From a virus (Duplodnaviria; Caudoviricetes), in the IMG/VR virus record IMGVR_UViG_3300027772_000071, positions 1 through 37,154 of that record: DNA of 37,154 nt. The stretch is one strand, 5' to 3'. Positions 1,001 through 37,154 of this stretch are shown here, one piece after another. A program made the translations under genes and the position numbers. The notes below the pieces were generated by a model. That model saw only the letters and a program-made list of their open reading frames with translations. It was not told the origin of the DNA and searched no databases. How positions within the stretch are numbered: the first letter of the stretch is position 1; each line of letters opens with the position of its first letter.

Positions 1001-1013
1001 TCTAGGACCGTAA

Positions 1014-2066: not shown

Positions 2067-2075
2067 GAGACACAT

Positions 2076-2477: not shown

Positions 2478-3199
2478 AATTCCTAAAGACCAAAAATATT
2501 TCGCAGTTCAGCATCAACGATCGTGCGTTAATTTACTATCCAGCTGGCAATGGTCCTGGTAATAGAGTAGTAGTTAACGCCAACGGTGGCATGATGCTGC
2601 CCAAAGGCACAACTGCACAACGTCCACAGTTGACCAGTGTTCGTCAGCCCACAGATGCCAACGGTACAATTAGATACAATACAACAATTCCTGCACTAGA
2701 AGCCTATGTAGGAGGCGCTTGGGTCACAGTGGCCAGTCCATTTGCTGCTGCTATTACCAAACAAACACTGGGCCCTGGTGACGGTGTATCTACTATTTTT
2801 GGACCGTTGAACACCACCTTTGCGGCATCATACGCTGCCAGCGCAGACAACGTACTTGTGTTGGTAGAAAACGTCATGCAGATTTCTACCACAAACTTTA
2901 CAATAAATCAAAATCCCACAAGCACAGGCACAGGCGCTGAAATCAACGCCACTGCATTAAGTAGTGGCAATAATGGTACCAGTTATGTAATCACTTCAGT
3001 AGGAACCACAACATTTACATCGTTTGGTGCAGGAGCAAACACCGTAGGCACAGTATTCACAAAAAGTGGAGCAACACCTACAGGCTCTGGAACAGTTCGA
3101 ATTGCTGGATATTATATTACATTTACATCAGCAGTACCAAGCACAGGAGGGGGCGGTAATCCAGTTTACGTAACTGTATACTACGGATACGCCAACTAA
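2474..3199 (+). CDS. Putative virion structural protein (241 aa)
   Basis: Start moved to ATG 2474, an ATGA overlap with the upstream stop. Contains the LPKGTTAQRP...GTIRYNT...EAY.G..W module and a GDG.ST.F...LVLVENVMQ domain. Confidence 0.7.
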   Translation: MKFLKTKNISQFSINDRALIYYPAGNGPGNRVVVNANGGMMLPKGTTAQRPQLTSVRQPTDANGTIRYNTTIPALEAYVGGAWVTVASPFAAAITKQTLGPGDGVSTIFGPLNTTFAASYAASADNVLVLVENVMQISTTNFTINQNPTSTGTGAEINATALSSGNNGTSYVITSVGTTTFTSFGAGANTVGTVFTKSGATPTGSGTVRIAGYYITFTSAVPSTGGGGNPVYVTVYYGYAN

Positions 3200-3201
3200 C
3201 C

Positions 3202-20273: not shown

Positions 20274-20603
20274 ATGGCAACAGGAAGATTAGGCGCTTTT
20301 AACATAACAACCACAGCAGATACCACGGTGTACACAGTACCCGCAGCTTCATTCAGCGTAGTTTCTGTAAATATATGTAATCGCAATTCAAGCACACCGG
20401 CTAACATACGTTTAGCAGTGTCAGCATTAGCAACACCAACAGTGGCAGAATACATAGAATACGATTCGTCGTTGGTAGCCAACGGTGTACTAGAACGCAC
20501 CGGTATCGTAATGAAGACCGGAGACCTATTAGTGTTTTCGACACCGACCGGGACTCCCACATTAAGTGTTGTGGTCTACGGCATAGAAACATCAACAGCA
20601 TAA
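20274..20603 (+). CDS. Small virion protein (paralog family with 2076 and 6307)
   Basis: 109 aa: VYTVPA....VVSVNICNR...LERTGIVM..GD...YGIE. GGAG RBS. Confidence 0.7.
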   Translation: MATGRLGAFNITTTADTTVYTVPAASFSVVSVNICNRNSSTPANIRLAVSALATPTVAEYIEYDSSLVANGVLERTGIVMKTGDLLVFSTPTGTPTLSVVVYGIETSTA

Positions 20604-21583: not shown

Positions 21584-22648
21584 ATGGCAAATTTACAGGC
21601 AACCACATTTACTGACCTTACCCTACCAAGGGGAACAACAGCTGAGCGGCCTGCTACTCCTGCTACAGGAATGGTAAGATACAATACCAGTTTTAATTTA
21701 TTAGAATTTTGGGACGGCACAAATTGGCGGCCAGTGACTGGCTACAGTGCAGGCACAATTGGCACCGGTGGAAACTCTATCACAAAAGTTAATAATAATA
21801 TTGTACACACTTTTACCTCAGTAGGCGCTGCAACATTCACGCCATCATTTAACGGCTATGTACAAGTACTAGTTCTTGCAGGCGGTGGAGCATCTTCAAG
21901 CGGTTGGGGTGGTGGTGGTGGTGGTGGTGGCATGATATTCAATCGTGCATTTCCAGTTAGTAGCGGAACTGCTTATCCTGTGACTGTTGGCGCTGGCGCC
22001 GGTGTAAATTCAAATGCAAACGGTAGCCCTACCACCTTCAGCACCATAACCGCCAACGGTGGCGGTGTAGCTGGCTCATGGGATCAACAAAATCCAGGCG
22101 GCCCGGGCGGTTCAGGTGGCGGTGGCGCAAACACAAGTATTGACAGCAGTAGACTTCGAGTATTTGGCGGTATTGGTATTACAGGACAAGGATTTCCAGG
22201 TGGTTCAGGAGTGCGTTTCAACGATGACAGCGAAAACACACACAACGGTGGTGGTGGTGGTGGCGCCGGCGGCCCTGGTTGGGCCAGCCAAGACGAAAAT
22301 CAACAAACTGCCACTCATGGTGGCCCTGGTGCAGCCAGTGATATTCTAGGCGATATACTATACTGGGGCGGTGGTGGTGCCAGTGGCCCACACATCTGTG
22401 ATGGTGGTGGTGGTGATGGCGGAGTTGGTGGTGGAGGTGGCGGAGCTGCTCACTATGTTCCAGGATACCCCACAGTGGGTAACGGCTTCGGTGGCGGACA
22501 ATCATTAAACAAAGGTCAGCCTGCTAGTAATAATGACGGCCATGCTCGATATGGCGGCAACGGCGCTGCTAACACTGGTGGCGGTGGTGGAGGTGGTGGC
22601 TCACAACACGGTGGTGGCGGTTCCGGAATTGTAGTAATTAGATATTAA
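21584..22648 (+). CDS. Glycine-rich adhesin-like virion protein, paralog 1
   Basis: VHTFT....F, VLVLAGGG, GGGGGGG blocks, FPGGSG, NTGGGGGG and a GSGIVVIRY terminus. Confidence 0.8.
   Translation: MANLQATTFTDLTLPRGTTAERPATPATGMVRYNTSFNLLEFWDGTNWRPVTGYSAGTIGTGGNSITKVNNNIVHTFTSVGAATFTPSFNGYVQVLVLAGGGASSSGWGGGGGGGGMIFNRAFPVSSGTAYPVTVGAGAGVNSNANGSPTTFSTITANGGGVAGSWDQQNPGGPGGSGGGGANTSIDSSRLRVFGGIGITGQGFPGGSGVRFNDDSENTHNGGGGGGAGGPGWASQDENQQTATHGGPGAASDILGDILYWGGGGASGPHICDGGGGDGGVGGGGGGAAHYVPGYPTVGNGFGGGQSLNKGQPASNNDGHARYGGNGAANTGGGGGGGGSQHGGGGSGIVVIRY
21908..21928 (+). repeat. (GGT)7 in-frame trinucleotide tract (polyglycine)
   Basis: Seven perfect GGT units. A (GGT)6 tract lies at 24542-24559 and shorter tracts occur throughout 21.9-24.9 kb. 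Confidence 0.9.
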
Positions 22649-22658
22649 GAGAGAATAA

Positions 22659-23795
22659 ATGGCAACGCTTAAAGACACAACAATCAATGACACGGGATTT
22701 ATTACACTACCTGTAGGAGCCACTGGTTCACGGCCTAGTCCTACACCTGGAATGATTCGATTCAATACCGCAAACACTCTATTAGAATTTTATGATAACA
22801 CAGGCTGGAGACCGATCACTGGCGTTAGCAAAGGGTCAATTGGTACCGGCGGCAACACGATATTGTATGCAGGCTCAAATGTTGGCAGAGCCAGCGGTGT
22901 AGTACATATGTTTACTACTGTAGGCAGTCAAACATTTACACCAGCATTCACAGGAACTGTTGAAGTATTGGTGATTGGTGGTGGTGCATCAGGCGGCGGC
23001 CACCTAGGTGGCGGTGGTGGCGGTGGCGGGTTTACCTACAATAGAGCATTCCCAGTTAGTTCCGGCACTGGATACCCAGTGACCGTAGGCAACGGTGGTG
23101 CAGCTAACACCTACGGACAAAGTCCTCCAGGATACACAGGCGGAAACTCAGTGTTTTCAACTATCACATCCAACGGTGGTGGCGGTGGCGGATCATGGGA
23201 CGGGAATGCAGCCCGTCCTGGCGGCTCAGGTGGCGGCGGATGTACCGGTTCAAACGGTGCTGGATCAAACGGCCATACTGGACCAAACGACAGCCGCAAC
23301 ACAAACATGGGCGGTCGAGCAGTGTCTGGTCAAGGATTCCCAGGCGGATCAGGCATTAGATTTAACCGTCAAAGTGAAGACAGTCACAAAGCAGGTGGCG
23401 GTGGCGGAGCAGGTGGACCTGGATTCAGTTCAGAAGATGACTGCCACGAAGGCCGCATGGGCGAAGGTGGTCCAGGAGCAGCCAACGATATTCTAGGATA
23501 TACTCTGTATTGGGCAGGTGGTGGCGGTGGCGCTTGTCACCAAGGAAATACCACCAATGGATCAAGTGGCGGAATTGGTGGTGGGGGTGGCGGTACATTA
23601 AATCACGGAAACCCAAGATACCCTAGCACAGCTGGTAGCAGCAGTGGCGGTGGGCAAGCATTAAACAGTGGCGGTGGCGTCGCTAACAGCGGCTATGAAG
23701 GCGGCACAGCTGGCGTAAACACAGGCGGCGGATCAGGCGGTGCATACGGTTCTGCAAAAATTGGCGGCACTGGCATAGTAATTGTCAGATATTAA
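22659..23795 (+). CDS. Glycine-rich adhesin-like virion protein, paralog 2
   Basis: Colinear with 21584 and 23810. Ends GTGIVIVRY. Confidence 0.8.
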   Translation: MATLKDTTINDTGFITLPVGATGSRPSPTPGMIRFNTANTLLEFYDNTGWRPITGVSKGSIGTGGNTILYAGSNVGRASGVVHMFTTVGSQTFTPAFTGTVEVLVIGGGASGGGHLGGGGGGGGFTYNRAFPVSSGTGYPVTVGNGGAANTYGQSPPGYTGGNSVFSTITSNGGGGGGSWDGNAARPGGSGGGGCTGSNGAGSNGHTGPNDSRNTNMGGRAVSGQGFPGGSGIRFNRQSEDSHKAGGGGGAGGPGFSSEDDCHEGRMGEGGPGAANDILGYTLYWAGGGGGACHQGNTTNGSSGGIGGGGGGTLNHGNPRYPSTAGSSSGGGQALNSGGGVANSGYEGGTAGVNTGGGSGGAYGSAKIGGTGIVIVRY

Positions 23796-23809
23796 AGAGA
23801 AAAATACAA

Positions 23810-24955
23810 ATGGCAACACTAAAAAATACAACACTTAGCATTGCTAGTGCGGTGGTTACCCCAGACAACACTTCTAGTACAGTAGCCGGAACTGGCAAAA
23901 TTCGATATAACACAACCAACAGTCAAAATGCTTTGGAATTTTATGATGGCACAGCGTGGCGTCCAGTAACAGGATACAGTCAAGGACTTGTGGGCACAGG
24001 CGGAAACACCATATCATATGTGCTAGGAAATATTGTGCATCAGTTTACTGCATTAGGTGCTCATACATTTACGCCTGCACACTCCGGAACTGTACAAGTG
24101 CTAGTGGTCGCCGGCGGAGCCGCCAGCGGTTATGATTGGGCAGGTGGCGGTGGTGGTGGTGGTGTTATCCTTAATAGAGCATTTCCTGTTACTTCAGGTA
24201 CTGGTTACTCAATAACAGTGGGTGATGGATCAAAACAATATGACGGTGGTGGCTCACCATCGGGTCCTACTGTGTCTGCAGCCAACGGCGGAAACTCAGT
24301 ATTCTCAACTATCACTGCCAGTGGTGGTGGTGGCGGTGGATCGTGGCAGTCAGCTGCGCCACCTTCGATGGACAACGGAAGAACTGGCGGTCGCACCGGA
24401 GCATCAGGTGGTGGTGGATCAAACACAGGTGACGGTGTTGATAGTCGCCAGCGTAACTATGGTGGCAGAGGCATTGACGGTCAAGGATATCCCGGCGGTT
24501 CAGGTCTTAGATTTAATGCAGACACTGAAAATACACACACCGGTGGTGGTGGTGGTGGTGCTGGAGGTCCTGGAGCAAGCTCTCCTGACGGTCGTCAGCG
24601 TTATCGTTCATCATTTAGAGGCGATCAGATTTCAGGCGGCCCTGGCCGTGCAACAGATATTCTAGGCGGAACACTGTACTTTGGTGGCGGCGGTGCTGGC
24701 GGTGGTCATCTAGGTTGGAACGTTAATGGATCGGCTGGAGGCATTGGTGGTGGTGGTGGCGGAAGTTTTCACCATAGCGGACCCTACGGCGGTGATCGAA
24801 AATTTGGTCAAGGCGGTGGCCAATCACTAAACAATGGCACTGATGGATTTGCCACAGCACGTGGCGGCGAAGGCGGTGCCAACACCGGAGGTGGTGGTGG
24901 TGGTGGACAACATGGCCGTAATGGCGGATCAGGTGTAGTTATTATTAAATACTAA
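23810..24955 (+). CDS. Glycine-rich adhesin-like virion protein, paralog 3
   Basis: Colinear with the previous two. Ends GSGVVIIKY. Confidence 0.8.
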   Translation: MATLKNTTLSIASAVVTPDNTSSTVAGTGKIRYNTTNSQNALEFYDGTAWRPVTGYSQGLVGTGGNTISYVLGNIVHQFTALGAHTFTPAHSGTVQVLVVAGGAASGYDWAGGGGGGGVILNRAFPVTSGTGYSITVGDGSKQYDGGGSPSGPTVSAANGGNSVFSTITASGGGGGGSWQSAAPPSMDNGRTGGRTGASGGGGSNTGDGVDSRQRNYGGRGIDGQGYPGGSGLRFNADTENTHTGGGGGGAGGPGASSPDGRQRYRSSFRGDQISGGPGRATDILGGTLYFGGGGAGGGHLGWNVNGSAGGIGGGGGGSFHHSGPYGGDRKFGQGGGQSLNNGTDGFATARGGEGGANTGGGGGGGQHGRNGGSGVVIIKY

Positions 24956-26517
24956 TCTTTATATACAGTGTCGTTAAGATACTGATATAACGAAGGGGCT
25001 GTTTCTACAGCCTTTTTCCATTTTGTTTTCTTTTGTTCAAGTTTTTGAATCACAATAGAAAACTCTTGTTTAAGATCTGTACCAACAGGAAAAATATGGT
25101 TTAATAATGCTATATCGTTGGCATTCCAATTCATGCCAGCTGCTAGACAATTAATTCCTGGATCTTCTTGAAAATATCTCACAAAGTTTTTCTGATACAT
25201 TGTTTGATAATACAATCCCTGAGTTTGTAATTGATTGACCACAGGAGCCAATTTTGTATAGGACTTTTTACCTATATCTTTCCAATAATCTGAATCATCT
25301 CGATGGCTTAGAGCATAATGCATTGATACAAAATGTGCCCAGTAGTTAAATTCATCTTGGCATTTTAAATTAAATTCATCTCGATCCCATTGACTAACAC
25401 TGCCTCTAAGCAGTACACTGCACAATGTTCTGGCAAATTCGTGAGTAGTAAGTAGGCCTGTGCTTTCTAAAGGTTCAATAAATGCCGCACTTAATCCCAA
25501 TGCCACAACATTCTTTTCCCAAAGTTTTTCATGCATGCCTACCCGCATATTAATATCTCTAAATTCACAATTAGTGGTATCGTAACCTTTGGATATTAGA
25601 TATTTTATAAAATCTGCTTTGGCATCTTCCGGAGAGATATACTTGTCACTGTACACGTATCCAGTGCCTACTCTACTCCATAGTGGAATATTCCATACCC
25701 ACCCGTTATCTAATGCTGTGCATTCAGTAACTGTGGTAAGTTGAGTTTCTTTATCGGTGTAGTTGATCCTAGTAGCCCATGCTCTGTTATTAGGCAACAG
25801 ATGTTCGTAACTGTTAAACGGTACACCTAATGCTTCGCCTAATAGCATGGATTTAAATCCAGTACAATCCACAAATAAATCCGCTGAAACTTGTTCGCCG
25901 GTATCCAACGTTAACAACTCTATACCATTATCATTGGTAGTAATCTTAGTAACTTCTGCAGAAATATGAGTAACTCCTCGAGGCTTGCAATGACTATCTC
26001 TTAACCAAGCTCCAAGTTTGGCTGCATCAAAATGAAATGCAGTATCGTTATAAAAATTAAAATTATCTAGTTCTCTACTATCCGTTAAAATTTTATTAGC
26101 ATTGACCAATGCCATCTGAGAGTAATAACAGTTAACATAGTCATCGGTAGGCGTCTTTGGGTATAGAGCTTTCTTAATAAACCAATCATCTCTAAGATGT
26201 AGATTGCCATCCAAACAAGGAAGCCCAAACGGATAATACCACGTACCGCTATCTTTATTATAAAAATTATTAAATTTGATGGCAATTTTATAAGAAGCAT
26301 CGGCGGCCTTCATGAAGTCTCGATCAGTGATTCCGACCATTCGCAACCACCCACGGATACCGCCTACTGTGCTTTCACCAACTCCTACTGTGGGAATACT
26401 AGGACTTTCGATCACTGCGATATTTGTGTCTTTCAATTGAGTAACCAGCGATGCAGCCACAATCCACCCAGCACTACCGCCTCCAACAATTACAATATTT
26501 TTAATCTTTTGACTCAT
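24952..26517 (-). CDS. Flavin-dependent halogenase, tryptophan halogenase (PrnA/RebH) family, copy 1
   Basis: IVGGGSAGW (FAD binding), GVGEST, ASYKIAIKF (catalytic Lys position), AFHFDA, DCTGF, GWVWNIPL (WxWxIP) and FIEPLESTG. Confidence 0.9.
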   Translation of the reverse strand: MSQKIKNIVIVGGGSAGWIVAASLVTQLKDTNIAVIESPSIPTVGVGESTVGGIRGWLRMVGITDRDFMKAADASYKIAIKFNNFYNKDSGTWYYPFGLPCLDGNLHLRDDWFIKKALYPKTPTDDYVNCYYSQMALVNANKILTDSRELDNFNFYNDTAFHFDAAKLGAWLRDSHCKPRGVTHISAEVTKITTNDNGIELLTLDTGEQVSADLFVDCTGFKSMLLGEALGVPFNSYEHLLPNNRAWATRINYTDKETQLTTVTECTALDNGWVWNIPLWSRVGTGYVYSDKYISPEDAKADFIKYLISKGYDTTNCEFRDINMRVGMHEKLWEKNVVALGLSAAFIEPLESTGLLTTHEFARTLCSVLLRGSVSQWDRDEFNLKCQDEFNYWAHFVSMHYALSHRDDSDYWKDIGKKSYTKLAPVVNQLQTQGLYYQTMYQKNFVRYFQEDPGINCLAAGMNWNANDIALLNHIFPVGTDLKQEFSIVIQKLEQKKTKWKKAVETAPSLYQYLNDTVYKD

Positions 26518-27235
26518 GTGGACACCTTGTAATTTTTTTATCTTTTAATTCTTCATATCGTTCTTTAAGAGGCCTAAACGCATTTTCTTGTCTAATAGAA
26601 TTGCATAATTTAATTTCAGACCACGGAGTGCTGGCTGGAACTAATTTAATCAGTTGATCTGTGTTAAATTTAAAATAGGCAACAGCATCGCCTTTGTTAA
26701 TAACTATCTTTTCTTGATTCGATTTAACTTCGAATACTATTTCAACAGGCCTAGTCCATTTTCCTATATCAAACTCGCCTGGGATCACAGTTGCTGACTT
26801 TGAGAATTCCGTGTGATGCATAAATGCAGGTAATACCTGTAGCAATAATGAATCGTTGCAAGTGAATATGTTGAGCCAATCTATGCCAATAAGCGGATAC
26901 GGATTTGTTTGATTATCGTAATCTTCTAAGAATCTAGTATCGATTAAATTATCAAACACTGCTTGACTTAAATTTTCACTTAGTATTGATCTGTTAGCAT
27001 CAGTAATATTAATATCTAAAGTAACATCAAACGGTGCTAGAAATACAAACGTATTTTTCAAAAAATCAGTATGTGCAGGGCATTTTAAAAACGTTGAACC
27101 TTTTCTAGTTGTTGCTATTTCTTTAGATAAGTGCTCATACGGATGTACTGCGACATCAACTAATGGTCTAATACAGCTTAAATGATCAGTGTCCCATTCG
27201 TGACTAGTAATAAAAGACCAATTGACTAGTTTCAT
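26501..27235 (-). CDS. Conserved phage hypothetical protein (KCPA motif; possibly DUF6065 or dUTPase-like fold)
   Basis: 244 aa with KCPA...F.....PFD, PG..DIGKW.RP and I.KGD.....F. Overlaps both neighbouring halogenase genes. The fold guess is from memory only. Confidence 0.6.
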   Translation of the reverse strand: MKLVNWSFITSHEWDTDHLSCIRPLVDVAVHPYEHLSKEIATTRKGSTFLKCPAHTDFLKNTFVFLAPFDVTLDINITDANRSILSENLSQAVFDNLIDTRFLEDYDNQTNPYPLIGIDWLNIFTCNDSLLLQVLPAFMHHTEFSKSATVIPGEFDIGKWTRPVEIVFEVKSNQEKIVINKGDAVAYFKFNTDQLIKLVPASTPWSEIKLCNSIRQENAFRPLKERYEELKDKKITRCPHESKD

Positions 27236-28701
27236 AGTTTGTTTAATTCGGTAATTCGATCAACTTCAGCACTATGCGGTCTACCCCAAATATGTCGATG
27301 CTTTTCGTGCTCAATGTAATTTTTTACTAATAATTCTCCCGACGCTTCTGGTGGTATGGGGATATTCCTAGAAGCCAGTTTATATCCTAACTGAATTAGC
27401 ATCAAACTCCAGTTAGATCCGCCAAACATATAATTATACTTGCCGGCATTAGGAACAGCAATACTAGGATTGATTAACTCATTAACAAAGTGATTCATCC
27501 GAGCTGATGGCGCAAACTTATCTTTAACATAATCCCAAAATTTACTAGATCTTGAATTATTTGCATAATGCATACTTACAAAATCCACACAGTCTTCAAA
27601 CAGAATTTTCATTTGTAAATTAAAATTTGTTCTATCAATATCACTAAATCGTCTTTCATAGATCGCACTGTTTAGTTGTCCAATGGCATAGGTGATCAAG
27701 CCAATGCCTGTGCTTTCTAATGGTTCGATAAATCCAGCACTTAACCCAACAGTTACTACATTACCAGCCCACTGATCTTCATTATAAAATGGATCCCAAT
27801 GTATGACCCTAACATTTTCTTTGTTGATTCGGTTGTTCCAATGGTTAACAAAATACTCTTTGGCTTCCTCTATGTCAGTGATATGTCGATTAAAAACCAT
27901 ACCGCTACCAATCCTAGAAGCCACTCCTATCTTCCATATCCATCCATGATCAACTGCTTCACACACTGCATAAGGTTTGAATTCGCTTGCTCTATCCTGA
28001 TACTGCACAGGACATGCCACTGCGGTATTAACAAACAGTCGATCGCTTAAATCAATTCGATTGGTTGGTTTTCTTAAAATATTTTGGAAACCTGTACAGT
28101 CAACATACAAGTCACTAACTATACGATCTGTATTTTTTAATTCCAATGACTCGATAATATCGTTATCTTTATAGTGTACCTTTACAACATCGGAACGAAC
28201 AATTTTAATTTTATCTTTTAGCCTGTCTTGTAAAAAAATTACCAACTTATTGCAATCTACATGAAATGCATAATTATCTATCGCATTGGAATCGAGTGAA
28301 TTATGATCCACTGAATTTTCATAACTTGACAATGCATATTTTTTAAAATCAAAGCTCTGATCGCAAGACCAAACATCCCATATATTCGTGGTGTTGAATA
28401 ATTTCCTATTCCCTTTATAAAACGGATGCCATATGTCGTCTTTGGGCTCACGCCAATTAGCAAATAGTATTCCAGACTTGTACCCGGTGTCTATGGGAGT
28501 AAACCAGTCTTCAAGTTTAAATCCGCATTCATCCATAAATGGTTTAAAACTTAGTAGAGTAGCTTCGCCAACTCCAATAGGAGTTCCGACTTCCTTGTCT
28601 ATAACTGTTATCGCTATATCGGGTTGATTCTTATATAGATATGCAGCAGCAAGCCATCCGCTAGTTCCGCCACCTACAATAGTTATACTGGATACATTCA
28701 T
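27232..28701 (-). CDS. Tryptophan halogenase family protein, copy 2
   Basis: Start moved to ATG 28701 (GAGGA RBS). IVGGGTSGW, GVGEAT, GYKSGILF, DCTGF, GWIWKIG and FIEPLESTG. Confidence 0.88.
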   Translation of the reverse strand: MNVSSITIVGGGTSGWLAAAYLYKNQPDIAITVIDKEVGTPIGVGEATLLSFKPFMDECGFKLEDWFTPIDTGYKSGILFANWREPKDDIWHPFYKGNRKLFNTTNIWDVWSCDQSFDFKKYALSSYENSVDHNSLDSNAIDNYAFHVDCNKLVIFLQDRLKDKIKIVRSDVVKVHYKDNDIIESLELKNTDRIVSDLYVDCTGFQNILRKPTNRIDLSDRLFVNTAVACPVQYQDRASEFKPYAVCEAVDHGWIWKIGVASRIGSGMVFNRHITDIEEAKEYFVNHWNNRINKENVRVIHWDPFYNEDQWAGNVVTVGLSAGFIEPLESTGIGLITYAIGQLNSAIYERRFSDIDRTNFNLQMKILFEDCVDFVSMHYANNSRSSKFWDYVKDKFAPSARMNHFVNELINPSIAVPNAGKYNYMFGGSNWSLMLIQLGYKLASRNIPIPPEASGELLVKNYIEHEKHRHIWGRPHSAEVDRITELNKL

Positions 28702-28727
28702 ACTTTTCCTCAATTTACCATACACTG

Positions 28728-28768
28728 TACTTATATTTTTTGAGAAGCCTCTTAGAATTTCATAAATA
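28728..28768. promoter_or_regulatory. Divergent late-promoter-like boxes
   Basis: TATAAGTA on the - strand (28735-28728) upstream of halogenase 2. TAAATA on the + strand (28763-28768), 7 nt before ATG 28776. Confidence 0.5.
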
Positions 28769-28775
28769 TTGCCAC

Positions 28776-29363
28776 ATGATACACATTATCGACAACCTCA
28801 TCTCAACGTCATTCCAAGAAGAAATTAAAAACACATTACTTGGACATAGTTTTCCTTGGTATTTTGCCGAAGATATTACATTTGGAAAATCATTAATTGA
28901 AGCTGAAAATTTAGGACAACCACACCCTGCACATGCACATCTATTTTGCAGAAATAAAAATCCAACAAGTAATTATTTTGATTTAATCATGCCTTTGGCC
29001 CATATCGGATCATCTGAAGTTAATTTTAAATTTAATGAAGTTGTGCAATGCCGAAGTTTTCTACAATACCCATTAAACAACACATTTTTAAAAAAACAAG
29101 TAGATCGTTTACACATAGATTTACCATACGATCATTTGGTCGTACTTTATTACGTAGTTGATTCTGATGGTGATACACTGATAGTGGATAAAACTAGAGA
29201 AGGGAACATTGAAGAGTATCATCATAATATTGAGGATTATAACATAATTCAACGAGTCAAACCAAAACGAGGCAGGGCAGTGATATTTGACGGTAAGTAT
29301 TATCATACAGCAGAGCAACCAACACAAAATATGCGTTGCATTATTAATTTTAACATTATATAA
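28776..29363 (+). CDS. 2OG-Fe(II) oxygenase, HxD type
   Basis: Start moved to ATG 28776 (MIHIIDN). FPWY, HID, LYYV.DSDGDT, YYH and R.IINFN give the HxD...H triad and the 2OG-binding Arg. Confidence 0.82.
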   Translation: MIHIIDNLISTSFQEEIKNTLLGHSFPWYFAEDITFGKSLIEAENLGQPHPAHAHLFCRNKNPTSNYFDLIMPLAHIGSSEVNFKFNEVVQCRSFLQYPLNNTFLKKQVDRLHIDLPYDHLVVLYYVVDSDGDTLIVDKTREGNIEEYHHNIEDYNIIQRVKPKRGRAVIFDGKYYHTAEQPTQNMRCIINFNII

Positions 29364-29971
29364 TGAATAATAAAATTCATGTAATAGATAACTTTTTGCC
29401 AGATCTTGAATTTGAAAAATTACAAGAACATATTCTATCGGTTAATTTTCCTTGGTTTTATTGCGAACATGTGTCTTTACCGCCCGAGGAAAACGAAATC
29501 GTAGATCCGCTGGCCGTCGAAACTGATGGTTTCCATCACATCTTTTATGACAAAGAATACGATGTTGAAAGTTTTGCTGCCGAGTATTTGAATGATTTTT
29601 TTAAAAGATTACAAGAAAATCTAGGATTTACAAAAGATCATTTTATTAGGATTAGGTCCAGCATGAAAAGTCCTAAACTTGAGTTTACTTCAGAAAATTA
29701 TAATCTACCGCACGTTGATTATTTTTTCCCTCATGAAACAATGATATATTATCTTAATGACTCTGACGGAGATACTCGTATTTTTGATCAAGAGTTTACA
29801 CAAACTAAAGATAGTTGGGACAAAGAACCGGAAAAGTTTACAACCAAATGCAGGATCACACCTAAGGCAAACAGACTGGTATGGATCAGTGGATTTAGAT
29901 ATCATACTGCTAGCAATCCTATAGAATCAAAAAGAAGAATTATCATCAATATTAATTTATTACCATTATGA
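29363..29971 (+). CDS. 2OG-Fe(II) oxygenase, HxD type
   Basis: FPWF, PHVD, IYYLNDSDGDT, YHTA and RRIIININ. Paralog of 28776 and 35197. Confidence 0.82.
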   Translation: MNNKIHVIDNFLPDLEFEKLQEHILSVNFPWFYCEHVSLPPEENEIVDPLAVETDGFHHIFYDKEYDVESFAAEYLNDFFKRLQENLGFTKDHFIRIRSSMKSPKLEFTSENYNLPHVDYFFPHETMIYYLNDSDGDTRIFDQEFTQTKDSWDKEPEKFTTKCRITPKANRLVWISGFRYHTASNPIESKRRIIININLLPL

Positions 29972-30582
29972 GATTAGATCACTTATTTCCTATTCCGATA
30001 GTTAGAATAACAGTTGACCCTGCAATAGTCGAGTCTACTACAGCTCTAGTTGATCAGTATATCGAATCTGAAAAACTATTAGAAGCGGAACAACCGAATC
30101 AAGAATTAGTAACAACTTTTTACAATCATAAAGATTTTTTAGGAAAACTCGATGACAAAACACTTTTGAATTACATAAATTCAAAAGCAAGAGAATTTTT
30201 AAATCTTCGAGGATTTAATCCCAAGTGTTATTTAGAAATTACTTCTTGGCTACAACTATACCCAACAGGAACTCATTTTAACAAGCACGATCATTACGGT
30301 GCAATAATCAGCGGTGTGTTATATTTAAAAGCACCAAAAGATTGTGGAAATATAAGATTTTATAATCCTATCATAGGAAGGCGAGCAACTGATGTGTTTT
30401 TTGAAAACATAAAAATAACATCGAACGAATATAATTATCATTACGCTGAGTACACACCAATAGAAGGAGAAATGATCATGTTTGAATCTTGGCTTGAACA
30501 TTCAGTTGATATGAATTTATCACCTGAAAATAGAATTGCTGTTTCGTTTAATATTTGGGGAGATAAAGATGTCCCAAGTTGA
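29968..30582 (+). CDS. 2OG-Fe(II) oxygenase, HxH type (TIGR02466-like)
   Basis: LFP.PI, HDH, ISGVLYL, FESWLEHSV and RIAVSFN. Confidence 0.82.
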   Translation: MRLDHLFPIPIVRITVDPAIVESTTALVDQYIESEKLLEAEQPNQELVTTFYNHKDFLGKLDDKTLLNYINSKAREFLNLRGFNPKCYLEITSWLQLYPTGTHFNKHDHYGAIISGVLYLKAPKDCGNIRFYNPIIGRRATDVFFENIKITSNEYNYHYAEYTPIEGEMIMFESWLEHSVDMNLSPENRIAVSFNIWGDKDVPS

Positions 30583-31150
30583 GATGTGGTTTCCTGTCGC
30601 AATATATAAAGAAGATAATTTAATATCAGTAGAAGAAAATGACGAGTTAGTGAAATACTCGTTGAGTCTTAGAGATAAAATTCCTTCTGGAGGAGAAGAT
30701 TGGTACGGAGATACCTACAATACTCACGGAACATACGACCTGCAAAAAGATATAAAATTTAGACCGTTATTAAATTTGATATCAATGCATGTGAATAGCT
30801 TTGCTAAAATGCATAATTCCAACGGAACCTATGGAATTAGTTATGCATGGCTAAACATAAACAATACAAATACCTATCAAGAATTACACACTCACAATGC
30901 TGCTATTTTTAGTTGTTCGTATTATCTATTAGCTCCGGAGGGTTCTGGAGGCATCGTATTCGAAGATCCAAAAGAACCTGATATGTTCCCATTAAAAGCA
31001 ATCTCAGATAAAAATCAATTGAGTTTTACAAGAATAAAATATCCTGCAACTGAACGAACCTTGATAGCATTCAGATCTTATCTAAGACACATGGTTCAAC
31101 CTGGAACTAATATTGAACCTAGAATTTCAATTGCCGTTAATTTTATCTAA
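30569..31150 (+). CDS. 2OG-Fe(II) oxygenase, HxH type (TIGR02466-like)
   Basis: Start moved to ATG 30569 (GGGGAG RBS). AWLN, HTH, FSCSYY, F.SYLRHMV and RISIAVN. Confidence 0.82.
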   Translation: MSQVEMWFPVAIYKEDNLISVEENDELVKYSLSLRDKIPSGGEDWYGDTYNTHGTYDLQKDIKFRPLLNLISMHVNSFAKMHNSNGTYGISYAWLNINNTNTYQELHTHNAAIFSCSYYLLAPEGSGGIVFEDPKEPDMFPLKAISDKNQLSFTRIKYPATERTLIAFRSYLRHMVQPGTNIEPRISIAVNFI

Positions 31151-31152
31151 GT

Positions 31153-31794
31153 TTATCTGTTATATTTTATATTTGGATTAATTTTTTCTAGTACAAACAT
31201 ATACCCCAGGCAGTTTTCAAAATTAGCATCAGTTATAAAAGGTACCTCTTTTGCCAATACTATTTTAAAAAAGTTAGAAGAGTAGTATTCTATTTCTCCT
31301 AAAAATATCGGCGGCGGCATACATGACTCTATAATAGGCTGACACGGACTGCCTGTTATAATAATTAGTTTTCCGTTGTCAGTCAATAATGCATTTAATT
31401 TTTCAAAAATTTCTTGTAATCTATTTTTATAGTTGTGTAGGAATCCTCTATCATAAATTACATCAAATTTTTTGTCTGTGCTATCTTGAAAAAAATCTAC
31501 TGCTATAAAATTTACTTTAGAATTTACATGTATTTTTTTTGATAATTCTATCACATCCTCTGAAACATCGATGGCGGTAACATCGAATCCGTGATCAGCA
31601 AGATATACGCTATCGTATCCGCTTCCAGACCCTAATTCTAAAAGTTCTCCGGTATTTAAATCAATAGAATCTAAAAATTGTTTTAGATTTGGATCAACAG
31701 TTTTAATTTCCCAAGGAATAACATCGCTGTTATTTTTAGAAGCAAATTTTACTTTTCCTCTATAAACATTTTTCCAGTAGGTGTTATCATCCAT
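31153..31794 (-). CDS. Class I SAM-dependent methyltransferase (TPMT or thiol/halide methyltransferase-like)
   Basis: IPWE, LELGSGSG (motif I), VTAIDVS and FDVIYDRGFLH. Confidence 0.85.
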   Translation of the reverse strand: MDDNTYWKNVYRGKVKFASKNNSDVIPWEIKTVDPNLKQFLDSIDLNTGELLELGSGSGYDSVYLADHGFDVTAIDVSEDVIELSKKIHVNSKVNFIAVDFFQDSTDKKFDVIYDRGFLHNYKNRLQEIFEKLNALLTDNGKLIIITGSPCQPIIESCMPPPIFLGEIEYYSSNFFKIVLAKEVPFITDANFENCLGYMFVLEKINPNIKYNR

Positions 31795-31806
31795 AATATT
31801 TTTCCA

Positions 31807-33276
31807 TCAAATTTGTTTGTTTCGAATTGTAGAAATAAATTCTTTATGTCCTATACTCAGATTCATTTTTTCAAAAGTCCTAGTTTCTCGTATAAAATTT
31901 TCAGCAACATTTTTTATATCATGGTGCATCATGTCATACTCTTGTTTTATTTTTTCTTGATCAAATAAATCTAATCCAGCAAGTACCTGAAGATAATGTG
32001 CGTCTCGAAACAAAACATATGCTGTCTGGCTGTTGAAGTCATCTGCAATTGGCAAATTAGTACGCCATTGTTTTAACTTTTCCTTAAGAGAATCTGGAAT
32101 CTCCATCTGAGAAACATCTCTCCAAAACTGTGTATTAGTTTTACTTGTGATATAATGCAGTATTACAAAATCTCGAATATTAATCATAATGTCATTCACA
32201 TCATTATTATATTTTTCAATAGTTTTTTCGGTATAGTTAGGTAATCTATGCATTAATAAAAATGCCTGCTGGATACTAGTTCCTATAGATGTAGCTTCTA
32301 ACGGTTCTATGAAATTAGCACTGAGACCAATAGCACAGCAATTCTTGATCCATACCCGATCCAAATGTCCCGGATCAAAATTAATATGCTTTCCAATTGT
32401 TATTGCTTTACCTAAAAACTTTTCAACTTCTAGCTTTGCCTGATCAGCAGTGATATAATCGCTGTCAAAGATGTATCCGTTACCACACCGACCCCACACA
32501 GGAATATTAAACATCCATCCGTAATCCATGGCCTGTGCAGTAGTCCACATATTGTATTCTTCTTTTTCTTCTGTAGGGAAAACAATTGCAGATTTCATCT
32601 TAAGATATTTTGCGTGAGATTTCCAAGTAGCACCTAATTTAGATATTAGCAACTTTTTAAAACCTGTGCAGTCAATATAAAAATCAGATGTATAAGAATT
32701 TTGTTCTCCGACTAATTTACCGATATCACCTAAATCGTTAAGTTCTATATCTAAGATTTCATCGTCGATGACATCGATACCCCGTATTTCTGCAATCTTT
32801 GTAAGAAAATCATTTAATTTATTAGTATTAAAATGGTATTGATTAAACGGAGAACCGCCATCCGGGTCAAGATGCTTGGCATATACCTTATTCTTCCAAG
32901 TTAAACTGGGATTAAATGTGTGGTTAGGAGAACCGTCGCTTAATAATTTTCCGTAAACTGTGGGGTATTGTCCGTTTTTAATATCGTTTTCAGGACCAAT
33001 ACTGTGCATATAATCTTTCTTACCCCAACCTTTAAACATAATCCCACATTTAAAAGTAGCATCGCAATGACGAATTACTGCTTGGAATGGAATACTAATA
33101 TATTTCATAAATTCATTCCAATGCTCGGTACTGCCCTCTCCAACTCCAATAATCCCTATTTTTTTAGATCTAATTACTTCGACCGTTACATTCGGGAATC
33201 GAGTCTTAAGAATTAGAGCAGATGTAAACCCGGCAGTTCCGCCACCAACTATTGAAATTTTTTCTAATTTATTCAT
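31807..33276 (-). CDS. Tryptophan halogenase family protein, copy 3
   Basis: Start moved to ATG 33276 (MNKLEK). IVGGGTAG, GVGEGS, ATFKCGIMF, DCTGF, GWMFNIPV and FIEPLEATS. Confidence 0.88.
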   Translation of the reverse strand: MNKLEKISIVGGGTAGFTSALILKTRFPNVTVEVIRSKKIGIIGVGEGSTEHWNEFMKYISIPFQAVIRHCDATFKCGIMFKGWGKKDYMHSIGPENDIKNGQYPTVYGKLLSDGSPNHTFNPSLTWKNKVYAKHLDPDGGSPFNQYHFNTNKLNDFLTKIAEIRGIDVIDDEILDIELNDLGDIGKLVGEQNSYTSDFYIDCTGFKKLLISKLGATWKSHAKYLKMKSAIVFPTEEKEEYNMWTTAQAMDYGWMFNIPVWGRCGNGYIFDSDYITADQAKLEVEKFLGKAITIGKHINFDPGHLDRVWIKNCCAIGLSANFIEPLEATSIGTSIQQAFLLMHRLPNYTEKTIEKYNNDVNDIMINIRDFVILHYITSKTNTQFWRDVSQMEIPDSLKEKLKQWRTNLPIADDFNSQTAYVLFRDAHYLQVLAGLDLFDQEKIKQEYDMMHHDIKNVAENFIRETRTFEKMNLSIGHKEFISTIRNKQI

Positions 33277-33919
33277 CTTTATTTTTCTCTGGAATTTGAA
33301 ATTTGTAATTCCCTGACACACTTATGCGATACTTATCAGATGTATAGAAAGGAGCAACTGAGTGATTTAATTCTGCGGGAAATAAGAAAAAATGATTTTC
33401 CATGCTTTTGTCTGCGTCTATGTCTTGACGCCATATTTTTCCTAAACTGTTGATGTAGTAAAATGTAAATTTTCCTGCTAACGGATTTGAAGATTCAGCG
33501 CCTGGGGAGTACATATTTTCATCCCCTATACTATACGGGATTTCTATCCAAATTACAAATGACAACACGCCGCTATGATTATGAAATGGATTGAATTCGT
33601 GCTTCTCTTGAAAGTTGACCCATGCAGAATCTAAAGTTAACAAACAATCCGAAGTTAACATAGATTGTGAACTAAGATATCCAAACGAGTTATCAAACTC
33701 CCAAATGTACGGTTCGAGTATTTTTTTAATATGTTCTTTAGATTTAATTAATTCAAATTCTTTTTTAATATGCCCAACAAGTTTTTTATTATGTTTTTTA
33801 GCTAGATTAAAATTATTTTGAATTTCTAAAATTTCTTCTTTGAGGGGAGCTAACTCTTCGTCAGTGAAGACAGCAGTTATTACACCAATATTGGGAAATT
33901 GTAAAGTTTTTAAATTCAT
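33269..33919 (-). CDS. 2OG-Fe(II) oxygenase, HxH type
   Basis: AWVNFQ, NPFHNHSG, SFVIW, FPAELNHSV and RISVSGN. Confidence 0.82.
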   Translation of the reverse strand: MNLKTLQFPNIGVITAVFTDEELAPLKEEILEIQNNFNLAKKHNKKLVGHIKKEFELIKSKEHIKKILEPYIWEFDNSFGYLSSQSMLTSDCLLTLDSAWVNFQEKHEFNPFHNHSGVLSFVIWIEIPYSIGDENMYSPGAESSNPLAGKFTFYYINSLGKIWRQDIDADKSMENHFFLFPAELNHSVAPFYTSDKYRISVSGNYKFQIPEKNKDE

Positions 33920-34539
33920 ATTGCCTCAATGTTTAAATTGTCTATGGTTGAGTCAGATCCAAACTTTCCAGAAGTAAACGAGTTGAATCCTATAATTCGT
34001 CGATCGGCTGTACTTAGATTTGGACTGACACGATGACTCACCCAGCTTGGAAATATCACTAGCATCCCTGATTTTAAACCCAAAGACCAACTCTTTGAAT
34101 TTAATAGGTTGTATTCTTTTATCGTATAGTCAAATTGAAAATTTTTAGAAAATACCGGTTCAAATAATAATTCTAAATCTCCGCCGTCGACATCGACATA
34201 TAGTACACCAGAAAAAATACTATTCCCGTGAAAATGCTCTGCATGAAAAGTATTTTGAGGATTCCGTGTGGACCAACTGTCAGTTATAAAAAACTTATTT
34301 TCTAGTTTTAAAATATCATGCACGTAATGATCTAATGCTGCTTGAAAGCTAACTTTTAAATCTTTAAATTCTTCTAACTCTAATAGCTGGCGATTTAATG
34401 AAATGAAGTTATTGCCACCTCCACCGGACAGCTTTTCTCCTAAATTTACTAACGTAGTATACTCTATCTCAGACAATTTTTTAAAATCTTCCGAAACAAA
34501 CAGCGGAATACTAGCCAACGGTATTAACAATTCTTTCAT
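33916..34539 (-). CDS. 2OG-Fe(II) oxygenase, HxH type (TIGR02466-like)
   Basis: HFHGNSIFSGVLY, IFPSWVSHRV and RRIIGFN. Confidence 0.82.
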   Translation of the reverse strand: MKELLIPLASIPLFVSEDFKKLSEIEYTTLVNLGEKLSGGGGNNFISLNRQLLELEEFKDLKVSFQAALDHYVHDILKLENKFFITDSWSTRNPQNTFHAEHFHGNSIFSGVLYVDVDGGDLELLFEPVFSKNFQFDYTIKEYNLLNSKSWSLGLKSGMLVIFPSWVSHRVSPNLSTADRRIIGFNSFTSGKFGSDSTIDNLNIEAI

Positions 34540-34565
34540 TTTATATTTTTTATGTTATCACACTC

Positions 34566-34573
34566 TATAAATA
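34566..34573 (+). promoter_or_regulatory. Perfect T4-type late promoter box TATAAATA
   Basis: TATAAATA lies 4 nt upstream of ATG 34578, in the divergent gap. Confidence 0.6.
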
Positions 34574-34577
34574 ATCA

Positions 34578-35195
34578 ATGTTCACTTTAACTGAAAACCT
34601 GCTGTTTGTAACATCATGCTTTATTACTTATATCAACACTACAGACCACAAAGGCATAGTTGATGCTATAGAAAAAATACAATCCACTGATGTTGGCAAT
34701 CAGCGCAGCAACGAAGGCGGATTCCAATCAAAAGTGATTCATTCGCCAAATTTTGATAACTCAGCAACGGCTGATTTATTTGATAATGTCATTTGTCCAG
34801 CAGCTGGCATGGCGGCCAAATCTTGGTCATTACCATGTAAAATGGATCAAGTTGGATATTGGTACAATGTCAATTACAAGTATTCTTCGAATAGAGAACA
34901 TACACATCCTAATGCTTTTTTAAGTGGAGTATACTATATCAAGGTTCCCGAAAACAGCGGAAATATAACATTTTTACGAGCTAATTCAGAGCACGATAAA
35001 ATGGAATTTATACATAACAAGATCTCAGAAGAGAATCTTGAGATCGATAATAACAGAATCAATACCGAGCATTGGTATGCTCCGGTAGAAGGAATGTTAA
35101 TTTTATTTCCAGGCCACTTGTCTCATTATGTACGACAAAATTTAACTAACGAAGTTGATGATAGAAGAATATCACTGTCGTTTAACTTTTACTAA
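34578..35195 (+). CDS. 2OG-Fe(II) oxygenase, HxH type (TIGR02466-like)
   Basis: RSNEGGFQS, HTHPNAFLSGVYY, LFPGHLSHYV and RISLSFN. Confidence 0.85.
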   Translation: MFTLTENLLFVTSCFITYINTTDHKGIVDAIEKIQSTDVGNQRSNEGGFQSKVIHSPNFDNSATADLFDNVICPAAGMAAKSWSLPCKMDQVGYWYNVNYKYSSNREHTHPNAFLSGVYYIKVPENSGNITFLRANSEHDKMEFIHNKISEENLEIDNNRINTEHWYAPVEGMLILFPGHLSHYVRQNLTNEVDDRRISLSFNFY

Positions 35196-35196
35196 T

Positions 35197-35841
35197 TTAT
35201 TCAAAGTCAAAATTAATTACAATTCTAGAACTGTGATTAACTGGATAATTGCCTGCGTGGTATCGATGCCCGTTGAAAAATAATCCTTGCCCTTTCTTTG
35301 GTGTTATTCTTGCCAGTTCTGGCAGTGGCTGTGCAAAGATGGGATTGTACTCTTCTTCTTGAGGATTAAAGATCTTGTCAAATATAATAGTATCTCCGTC
35401 GCTGTCGTCTACGTAATATACCAGAGTACTGTACGGGTGTCCTGTGTTAAAATCAACATGCGGCGCAGCATATTTGAATCCGTCGTGTCCCCGACCTTTG
35501 TGAGTATATCGCAGTCTTATTCTTAAAACATTGTTTACTTTGATATTTGTTTTTTCTGTAAAAAATTCTAATATTGCTCTAAAGAAATCATAATGAGTCG
35601 ATGCCGAGCTTCCGTCAAACGCCATGTGGAAAAATCCAACATCGTCTGTGATGTTAGGATCAAGATATTGCGGTGTTGTTCCTACACCGTAATGATCTGG
35701 ATGACCAATTCTATGCAATAGGAACCAAGGAAAGTGTTGATCTCCTTGGATTCTATTAACTATTGCATTTTGAAAAGACTCGGGTACTACGTTATCAATA
35801 ACTAGTATCTCGTCTTTGATTTTATTAATTCGATAATCCAC
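35197..35841 (-). CDS. 2OG-Fe(II) oxygenase, HxD type
   Basis: GTG start. FPWF, PHVD, VYYVDDSDGDT, YHAG and RIVINFD. Confidence 0.82.
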   Translation of the reverse strand: MDYRINKIKDEILVIDNVVPESFQNAIVNRIQGDQHFPWFLLHRIGHPDHYGVGTTPQYLDPNITDDVGFFHMAFDGSSASTHYDFFRAILEFFTEKTNIKVNNVLRIRLRYTHKGRGHDGFKYAAPHVDFNTGHPYSTLVYYVDDSDGDTIIFDKIFNPQEEEYNPIFAQPLPELARITPKKGQGLFFNGHRYHAGNYPVNHSSRIVINFDFE

Positions 35842-37154
35842 GATCTTCTCTAATCTTTCTAAAATAATTTATAAACTGTTCATAAGATTGATAGTTTCTA
35901 ATTTCTCTAGCAAACTCATCTTGTAAATCATAATATGCCTGGGCAGTAATATCTCGTAGATTACCATGCATTGGCACAGCAAGATCTAATTCAGTTAATG
36001 CATTAGCATTGTTTAGTCGATTTATACCAGCCATCACATAGCTGTATAAGGCCCATCCTGCAGATCCTGCATATCGAGGAAAATCGTGAGATGTAGGCAA
36101 TCGATGTTTGGCCATTTCTAACAGGTCTTCAACGTAGGGAGTTTTTGTAACTCCGGTGTTGATATACTTCCAAAATTCAGTATCGCTTCGACCACCCATA
36201 TAATGTATTACTAAAAAGTCTTTGACATCATCAAACATTTTTCGAGTTCGTTGATTGTAAATGTTTTGTGATCCCAAATTTACTGTATCGTCGATAGTAG
36301 ATTTAATGTATTCAAATATCAATGTTCTACCCTGTACTATTGTTGAATGAATAGACGTTGCTTCTAGGGGTTCTAAAAACGCAGAACTAAGCCCAATGGT
36401 TATACAATTATTGATCCATGCAGAATCTTGGCGACCAGTATCAAATTTAATAACTTTGATAGGATCAATTTCTTGGCCTAGGATAGTTTCAATTTCTTCT
36501 TGAGCTTTATCCGGAGTTGTAAATGCATCACAAAATACATAACCGCATCCTTTGCGATCCATTAACGGAATTTGCCACATCCACCCATTCTTTTGAGCCC
36601 ACGCAGTGGTATATGGTTCGGGAACCTCATGTTGTTTATATTTTAATTGAAAAGGTAACCCAGTATTCAACGGAAGATTTTTCTGATAGCTAACCCACTT
36701 GTTTCCTGGCATGTGTTTCATTAGTACCTTGCTGAACCCAGAACAGTCAATGAATAGGTCTCCCTCAACAACTCCGCCACTTTTTAACACAACTGATTTA
36801 ATAAATCCGCGTTCATCTAAAATTGCATCAACTACTTCATCGTCGATATGCCTAGCATTTTTTTCAATTAGACATTTTTTCTTAAAATATTTCCCAACCA
36901 ATACTGCATCAACGTGCATGGCATGTCTATAATTGGCAAATTGATTAGTATCTTTTTCAAAATTTGATACGCCCTTGTCAATCCAGTATCCGCACTGCGA
37001 CACATTAACTAGTTCTTTTGGATGTAATCGATTTACTCCGTATGCAAATAATGCATCTGGAGTGGCTTCCTTAGTTTGGCTGCCGTCAATCGGTCCAAGA
37101 TAGTAATCGTCGATATCATTGGTCCAACCTTTGTGTTTAATTGCATATTTTAGT
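35825..37154 (-). CDS. Tryptophan halogenase family protein, copy 4 (partial, N-terminus beyond the window)
   Basis: The frame stays open past the called start at 37003 to the window edge (LKYAIKHKGW..., which includes the catalytic Lys position). DCSGF, GWMWQIPL and FLEPLEATS. Confidence 0.88.
   Translation of the reverse strand, partial: LKYAIKHKGWTNDIDDYYLGPIDGSQTKEATPDALFAYGVNRLHPKELVNVSQCGYWIDKGVSNFEKDTNQFANYRHAMHVDAVLVGKYFKKKCLIEKNARHIDDEVVDAILDERGFIKSVVLKSGGVVEGDLFIDCSGFSKVLMKHMPGNKWVSYQKNLPLNTGLPFQLKYKQHEVPEPYTTAWAQKNGWMWQIPLMDRKGCGYVFCDAFTTPDKAQEEIETILGQEIDPIKVIKFDTGRQDSAWINNCITIGLSSAFLEPLEATSIHSTIVQGRTLIFEYIKSTIDDTVNLGSQNIYNQRTRKMFDDVKDFLVIHYMGGRSDTEFWKYINTGVTKTPYVEDLLEMAKHRLPTSHDFPRYAGSAGWALYSYVMAGINRLNNANALTELDLAVPMHGNLRDITAQAYYDLQDEFAREIRNYQSYEQFINYFRKIREDRGLSN

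Follow-up and report, generated by a model that had tools for sequence, protein, structure and literature searches.

Halogenases and oxygenase arrays are common in aquatic phages, and the roles given to them in the published passages concerned (antibiotic, capsule, nitrogen signal) are speculative. According to the array sections of Iyer 2010 (PMC2938197), genes gp41 to gp54 of phage Syn9 form an array of dioxygenases, tryptophan halogenases and dUTPase-fold proteins for which a secondary metabolite is proposed. In that paper, Gly-rich or tail-collar proteins are also proposed as substrates of bacterial hydroxylase-sulfotransferase operons. The passages of Iyer 2021 (PMC7824862) on phage S-SSM6a interpret its cluster as serving capsule decoration or antibiotic synthesis. 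Control or draining of 2-oxoglutarate is proposed for cyanophage oxygenases in the relevant part of Sullivan 2010 (PMC3037559), antibiotic protection is raised as speculation in a section of a cyanophage review (PMC2984593), and an excerpt of a pelagimyophage paper (PMC7029224) describes a hypervariable host-recognition island. As for the halogenases, the VirX1 passages of another review (PMC8407142) describe a large, accessible active site and the halogenation of small arenes in vitro, and give no natural substrate. In the open-access literature, no paper was found in which phage tips are proposed or tested as targets of these enzymes. Here, the window IMGVR_UViG_3300027772_000071, a complete viral contig of 37,154 bases, was analysed. 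In it, three genes for Gly-rich tip proteins directly abut an array of halogenase, oxygenase and methyltransferase genes which extends past the contig end. This type of array is already known; what is new is that the enzyme set covaries with tip type and tip His content. Because of this covariation, the host-binding tips of the phage itself are the likely targets of decoration by the enzymes.

In the window, structural genes are followed by two long fibre genes (CBM5/12, phrog_9851), gene 20274, a fibre gene with an S74 chaperone domain, the three tip genes and finally the array, which confirms the overall observation of an earlier sequence-only reading of this DNA. The 14 open reading frames (ORFs) of the array comprise four PF04820 halogenases, eight oxygenase-type genes (five PF13759/phrog_81, three phrog_274), one S-adenosylmethionine (SAM) methyltransferase and one gene of unknown function (phrog_17480). 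The 13 modifying enzymes counted earlier among 14 consecutive genes are thereby borne out by Pfam and PHROG assignments. That no scaffold-building enzyme or transporter is present, as also claimed, holds for the 30 window proteins, the window being part of a larger genome: a family scan of these proteins, with the array incomplete at the contig end, found no non-ribosomal peptide synthetase, polyketide synthase, ligase or transporter family. The full genome size is probably about 360 kb, judged from relatives. Relative G001 spans 85.6 kb and is 23% complete by CheckV, and a complete 364-kb contig is present in the sample anchored on gene 20274. G001 encodes T4-like major head, portal, sheath and terminase proteins as well as a late sigma factor, and its fully visible array contains no scaffold enzyme or exporter as a large ORF.

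The neighbourhood linkage between adhesin and enzyme genes, named in advance as a test, passed in independent samples. The gene order of the window is repeated in 6/6 loci fetched by the tip alignment. In a halogenase-anchored sample (the best 80 of 591 loci, not dereplicated), 41/80 loci have a polyglycine gene no more than 6 kb away; 29 loci have short flanks and 10 have no such gene despite long flanks. Of these 10, four have tip-like genes of another kind, four are surrounded by non-structural genes and two were left unassigned. Pfam placed 57 of the 62 genes called Gly-rich by composition in PF21722 or PF12810 (E 0.01 or better). Of 17 complete cultured genomes, chosen from tblastn lists and not at random, 13 hold a full-length halogenase, and in 7/13 it lies at most five genes from a polyglycine gene (rotation null 1.3, p ~1e-4). 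Counted from the tips, 18/34 polyglycine genes have a halogenase within five genes, compared to 0/26 long fibre genes away from them. Oxygenase genes lie at most eight genes from a tip in 52/200 cases (null 23 ± 6.5). In tip-anchored contigs, an oxygenase is found downstream in 18/51 and upstream in 1/39, and in the Pro-motif tip loci (L418 to L474) oxygenase genes are present in all 34 loci with at least 2.5 kb downstream.

The tip proteins resemble described virion tips. All three exceed the PF21722 cut-off (3/3), with a Gly content of 28.5–29.9%. The model of tip 1 matches the Pam3 gp24 fibre (Z 12.3, root-mean-square deviation (rmsd) 3.6, 173 aligned), the Bxb1 tail-tip chain 9D93_Qa (Z 11.7, rmsd 4.5, 178 aligned) and the ALK glycine-rich domain (Z 7.9). 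A profile search with tip alignment A1 among PDB sequences gave no match, and in a tblastn of tip 1 against cultured phages the N-terminal part alone was matched, due to the low-complexity filter. In A1, H220 and W166 of tip 1 are invariant and H270 is conserved at 94%. According to the gp24 passages of PMC9608196, Pam3 gp24 is a virion protein with distal loops proposed to bind the receptor. Since the predicted fold of tip 1 matches solved tip proteins and Pam3 gp24 is found in virions, the label ‘adhesin’ appears well founded as a prediction. By analogy with Pam3, and from their position in the fibre operon, the tips would be present in the virion and bind a receptor.

The enzymes behind different tips were compared in the same slot, with the neutral gene 20274 as anchor. 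Flanks were available for 80 of 120 loci, and the 53 with at least 9 kb downstream were counted; one false match was removed and four loci had no tip call. Behind Cys-poor tips lies a halogenase in 14/18 loci and a carbamoyltransferase in 1/18; behind Cys-rich tips, the counts are 1/31 for a halogenase and 30/31 for a carbamoyltransferase. After dereplication, a halogenase follows 10/13 Cys-poor versus 1/20 Cys-rich tips. When the 31 Cys-rich and the four halogenase-free Cys-poor contigs were searched over their whole length, a halogenase was found in 3/35, two of them more than 100 kb away. No hidden nearby halogenase was found in this search; 21 of the 31 Cys-rich contigs reach at least 20 kb downstream. 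In the tree of the anchor gene, tip type switches eight times, with close sisters differing. The block behind the Cys-rich tips is a candidate second tailoring cassette in the slot behind gene 20274. In these loci (L568 to L647), a tail chaperone gene, a GT9-like gene and the carbamoyltransferase come next after the Cys-rich tips (30/31).

The GT9-like and carbamoyltransferase genes would suit glycans, and thus a reading in which the array serves to produce a small molecule bearing halogen and hydroxyl groups, or to decorate the surface of the host, and shares a host-recognition island with the tips. This is the published interpretation in the passages of Iyer 2010 (PMC2938197) and Iyer 2021 (PMC7824862), and it agrees with the in vitro activity of VirX1 on small arenes (VirX1 passages of PMC8407142). 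Halogenases are also found amid non-structural genes in L016, L026, L027, L061, S-MbCM6 and S-B64. However, such a role does not predict an enzyme set that tracks tip type or the tip His described below, and no scaffold enzyme or exporter was found in the window or, as a large ORF, in the G001 array. A metabolite or host-surface role is therefore considered unlikely.

The data point to His rather than Trp as the residue tracking the halogenases. Polyglycine domains with a halogenase (defined as within 6 kb), with an oxygenase only and with neither have median His contents of 1.64, 0.38 and 0.0%, respectively (n 53, 68, 33). In the first sampling, the corresponding medians were 1.78, 0.38 and 0.00% (n 46, 36, 31). 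Across the two samplings, 42 and 84 clusters with short flanks were excluded. For His in the first loop, the comparison gives 16/38 versus 5/97. The effect persists per contig when this clade and the cultured phages are excluded (p 1e-8). With His masked in the pairing, the halogenase-linked tip is the richer in His in 34/35 nearest-neighbour pairs and in 9/9 pairs of at least 50% identity.

Another possibility might be that the enzymes help the tips indirectly, by making or loading a small ligand or metal cofactor for His-rich loops or by aiding folding, with the tip itself unmodified. This would account equally well for the linkage, the late boxes described below and the His covariation; His-rich tips without a halogenase occur, and five oxygenases have a predicted three-His site. 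On the other hand, no ligand-scaffold enzyme was found among the window proteins and all three complete halogenase genes have intact motifs, and an indirect service of this kind is given a low probability.

Late-type boxes are found in the window. The motif ATAA(A/G)TA occurs nine times against 22 expected, and all nine copies lie 11–118 bases ahead of a start on the same strand. Five of the nine belong to the array (two ATAAATA, three ATAAGTA); the earlier claim was that at least three island genes share the TAAATA-type box of the structural genes. The boxes are also kept in relatives, at 30/38 listed divergent junctions (loci overlap). In T4, such boxes are read late in infection. Based on T4 biology and on the late sigma gene in G001, those of the array would likewise be read late. 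In cyanophages, an own late box precedes 0/18 halogenases, 7/200 oxygenases and 13/38 tips; the boxless halogenases fit read-through and add no support for a modification of the tips. The parts of the supplementary tables of PMC7238727 concerned give no timing class for array-type genes, and the passages of PMC6224464 contain no mention of glycine, oxygenase or halogenase.

Taken together, it is probable that late-expressed enzymes covalently modify the loops of the polyglycine tips, with His as the most likely site for the halogenases. The sequence-only reading had placed the substrates among the neighbouring virion proteins. Linkage, tip fold and boxes agree with this; the substrate step itself is still inferred. 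A gp55-type sigma factor would read the array boxes late in infection, and the enzymes would encounter the tip chains as these fold or are assembled. Reduced flavin adenine dinucleotide (FADH2) would come from a flavin reductase of the host, none being encoded in the window. The halogenases are predicted to act mainly on tip-loop His, the oxygenases might hydroxylate further residues in the loops, and a methyl group would be contributed by the methyltransferase. Such marks could change receptor binding, metal binding or tip stability, and the tip genes and enzymes might move between phages as a single cassette.

Several points weigh against tip modification. The Cys-rich/Cys-poor split was noticed post hoc, after data inspection, and the tree gives just three well-supported independent pairs for tip type. 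Tree-based His pairs are few (five starred, median p 0.25), an unbiased Pro-motif sample showed no His difference (3 halogenase loci versus 26, p 0.8), and the His difference in the same slot moves from p 0.002 to 0.05 and 0.2 on dereplication at 70% and 50%, respectively. Most halogenase-linked domains were obtained via a VirX1-like query. Individual phages also deviate: the tips of S-RIM2 and P-RSM1 are rich in His (11 and 9 His) with no halogenase, S-B64 has a His-rich tip with the halogenase 85 kb away, and in S-SRM01 the tip next to the halogenase contains 9 Trp and no His. His could, moreover, track a metal site or another member of the array. Regarding linkage, 6/13 cultured genomes have no halogenase within five genes of a tip, and a halogenase is present in only 1/66 tip-anchored contigs; therefore, tips can do without one. 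Likewise, 148/200 cyanophage oxygenase genes lie more than eight genes from any tip. Block inheritance can mimic covariation of tip and enzymes without any tie between enzyme and substrate.

This last point leads to the view that the genes are passengers of the island with no common substrate, serving for example the draining of 2-oxoglutarate, and that block recombination yields the covariation. The distant oxygenases just mentioned suit it, as do the GC content of the array (34.5% versus 43.2% in the structural genes), the hypervariability of the island in the excerpt of PMC7029224 and the low power of the independent-pair tests. Against it, halogenases of four deep clades are retained together across relatives at 55–90% identity, and the arrays have their own late-type boxes at most listed divergent junctions (30/38, overlapping loci included). 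In addition, the tie to tips is found repeatedly, across unrelated families of tips and groups of phages, and none of the 26 long fibre genes elsewhere is near a halogenase. Mere passage with the island thus seems improbable, and modification of the tips is preferred.

Two other residues were considered as general targets and rejected. For Trp and halogenases, halogenase-linked and enzyme-free tips do not differ (p 0.11–0.13), and nearest-neighbour pairs are split 17 versus 8 overall and 2 versus 3 at 50% identity or more. Trp halogenation may occur in single cases such as S-SRM01. In this phage (L093; 41680–44261), a lone halogenase is flanked by a fibre gene and by a gp38-like tip annotated as adhesin tip, and the central loop of this tip abounds in Trp and Cys and lacks His, which makes it a simple case for Trp halogenation. 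For Pro and oxygenases, the raw association (89/114 versus 5/40) is lost in tree pairs and in the same-slot sample (p 0.24), which also counts against tip modification. Since it is inseparable from clade, the Pro link is not used as support.

The coordinates of the tip slot and the array are collected in Table 1.

Table 1. Features of the tip slot and the modifying-enzyme array in the window, in order of position
Position	Strand	Feature	Basis or remark
20274..20603	+	Small conserved structural gene heading the tip slot, neutral anchor	phrog_11338 tail fibre; same place in L004-L009
20616..21578	+	Fibre protein with S74 chaperone domain	PF13884
21584..22648	+	Polyglycine tip protein 1, predicted adhesin	PF21722; model pLDDT (predicted local distance difference test) 87
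22659..23795	+	Polyglycine tip protein 2	PF21722; 49% identical to tip 1
23810..24955	+	Polyglycine tip protein 3	PF21722; 4-base overlap with halogenase 1
24952..26517	-	Flavin-dependent halogenase 1, VirX1-like	PF04820; VirX1 top PDB match, E 2e-100
26501..27235	-	Cys-Pro-motif protein, possible dUTPase-fold partner as Syn9 gp43	phrog_17480; CP motif
27232..28725	-	Halogenase 2, separate deep clade; likely start near 28701	PF04820; tree
28728-28734	-	Late-type box ATAAGTA, back to back with the next	Same pair in L004, L005, L008
28762-28768	+	Late-type box ATAAATA, back to back with the previous	Same pair in L004, L005, L008
28740..29363	+	Oxygenase, phrog_274 type, HxD...H...R; likely start 28776	Motif, PHROG
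29363..29971	+	Oxygenase, phrog_274 type, HxD...H...R	Motif, PHROG
29968..30582	+	Oxygenase, PF13759 type, HxH...H...R	Pfam, motif
30536..31150	+	Oxygenase, PF13759 type, HxH...H...R	Pfam, motif
31153..31794	-	Class I SAM methyltransferase, TPMT-like	LELGSGSG
31807..33321	-	Halogenase 3, separate clade; likely start 33276	Box at 33330-33336; tree
33269..33919	-	Oxygenase, PF13759 type	Pfam, motif
33916..34539	-	Oxygenase, PF13759 type; box 34625-34631	Pfam, motif
34578..35195	+	Oxygenase, PF13759 type; TATAAATA box 34566-34573	Pfam, motif
35197..35841	-	Oxygenase, phrog_274 type, HxD...H...R	phrog_274, no Pfam match
35825..37153	-	Halogenase 4, separate clade, N-terminus past contig end	PF04820; tree

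The claim of intact catalytic motifs stands in part. For the halogenases, the catalytic Lys and FxEPLE are aligned in four of four, and K77 and E348/E351 are invariant in alignment A2, which includes all four. The flavin-binding motif GxGxxG is present in the three complete genes (3/3) and would fall beyond the contig end in the fourth. WxWxIP is exact in halogenases 1 and 4, with one change each in 2 and 3 (GWIWKIG, GWMFNIP). For the oxygenases, the distal His and the following Arg, for 2-oxoglutarate, are found in 8/8; the triad is HxD...H in 3/8 and HxH...H, the PF13759 pattern, in 5/8, so HxD does not hold throughout. The four halogenases are 26–32% identical to each other and represent four deep clades, for each of which relatives hold orthologues. 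The model of halogenase 1 superposes on VirX1 with a TM-score of 0.91 (0.78–0.83 for the other listed halogenases), at about 34% identity over the structural alignment. In phage S-PM2, a halogenase gene (121319–122608) has a single internal stop.

For both oxygenase types, the chemistry is inferred, as one query each yielded no solved relative that is characterised. In these queries, the clear solved relatives of an HxH-type oxygenase were two uncharacterised proteins only, and a phrog_274-type oxygenase had no clear solved relative. The oxygenase at 35197..35841 is 26–29% identical to the two other phrog_274-type oxygenases of the window. The PHROG label ‘DNA endonuclease V’ of phrog_274 was set aside, as the three window members bear oxygenase motifs; this label has propagated into the GenBank annotations of Syn9 and S-H38. 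The label ‘ferrochelatase’ was likewise not used. The methyltransferase is retained in L004 and missing at that position in L005 and L008. Arrays of the Syn9 type include a dUTPase-fold protein with a conserved Cys; a profile from the Cys-Pro-motif protein did not detect Syn9 gp43, despite the CP motif and the matching position.

Within the array (24952–37154), the strand switches five times in 12 kb with hardly any intergenic space. Together with an altered gene order in L007, these switches suggest that sub-blocks with their own boxes may invert often. At the other end of the window, five of the six initial ORFs (243–533 and 605–5118) match no family at the applied cut-offs, and the G001 counterpart of this stretch sits after the major head gene. 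Exact fragments of tip and enzyme genes occur in contigs from four RNA runs of lake or freshwater origin, which shows habitat and presence only.

Other tip families were seen beside modifying enzymes as well. In L056 (4379–9977), five PF12810 (ALK-type) Gly-rich genes lie directly 5' of a halogenase, and four of them have 18–24 His in the domain, the maximum observed. In L014 (9061–13586) and L037 (14344–18834), which belong to the same clade, three tail-collar tips replace the polyglycine tips and adjoin halogenases, a carbamoyltransferase and three similar genes of 245–253 aa without a Pfam family. S-CREM1 carries a broken tip paralogue (54758–55282).

A wider proposal can be put forward tentatively, namely that aquatic phages carry swappable tip-plus-enzyme cassettes in which His halogenation (polyglycine tips), carbamoyl or sugar transfer (Cys-rich tips) and hydroxylation by oxygenases rewrite the receptor-binding loops. 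If tip modification is true, His halogenation on tips would be the natural job of VirX1-type enzymes, and host range would be diversified by a chemical layer beyond the 20 amino acids. Virion tips would then be chemically edited like ribosomally synthesised and post-translationally modified peptides (RiPPs), and host-range prediction from sequence would miss a layer. Such phages would also be a large reservoir of protein-acting halogenases and hydroxylases for biocatalysis. As the covariation of enzymes and tips names a residue, the question of the viral halogenase substrate becomes testable in cultured phages.

Compared to known systems, the sequence-only reading had described the locus as a RiPP-like cluster. 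MibH-type RiPP halogenases are flavin halogenases that act on a ribosomal chain. PDB 5UAO, which we take to be MibH, is the weakest of 30 PDB matches in the halogenase 1 search. Among the 30 window proteins, no families of RiPP anatomy (leader-core precursor, leader protease, exporter) were seen, and the candidate substrates here are structural proteins of full length. Because precursor, protease and transporter were not seen in the window, the label is kept as an analogy for tailoring and dropped as a classification.

Among single proteins, VirX1 of cyanophage Syn10 (PDB 6QGM) is the top match of halogenase 1 in both sequence and fold, whereas halogenases 2 to 4 belong to other clades. Pam3 gp24, Bxb1 9D93_Qa, S16 gp38 and ALK share a TNF-like sandwich and a polyglycine bundle with tip 1. 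The window tips differ from these in that the head domain is short and tailspike-like, the loops are longer and bear His, there are three paralogues and the array adjoins them; the Pam3 fibre passages of PMC9608196 do not mention modification. The bacterial beta-hydroxylase/sulfotransferase operons follow the same logic of Gly-rich or tail-collar substrates, itself a prediction in the passages of Iyer 2010. They are bacterial, however, with other enzyme families and no halogenase named in those passages. The carbamoyltransferase-halogenase-oxygenase cluster of S-SSM6a and S-SSM7 mixes modifying enzymes as the window does, and in S-SSM7 it sits behind three Cys/Gly-rich genes, like the Cys-rich cassettes of the window clade. 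It differs from the visible part of the window array, which has no carbamoyltransferase.

The closest likeness is to Syn9, where tandem oxygenases of several families and halogenases lie directly behind the Gly-rich gp36, gp38 and gp39, neighbours that go unmentioned in the array sections of PMC2938197. The window correspondingly holds oxygenases of two PHROG families and four halogenases; no MINA/JmjC member like Syn9 gp49 was found among the window proteins, the array being incomplete at the contig end. In contrast to Syn9, the four halogenases belong to four clades, both strands are used with their own boxes, a methyltransferase is present, no small helper gene separates tip and array, and the carrier is a freshwater T4-like phage of probably about 360 kb. 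The module is therefore a real, conserved, larger and two-stranded variant of the Syn9-type array and not a RiPP cluster.

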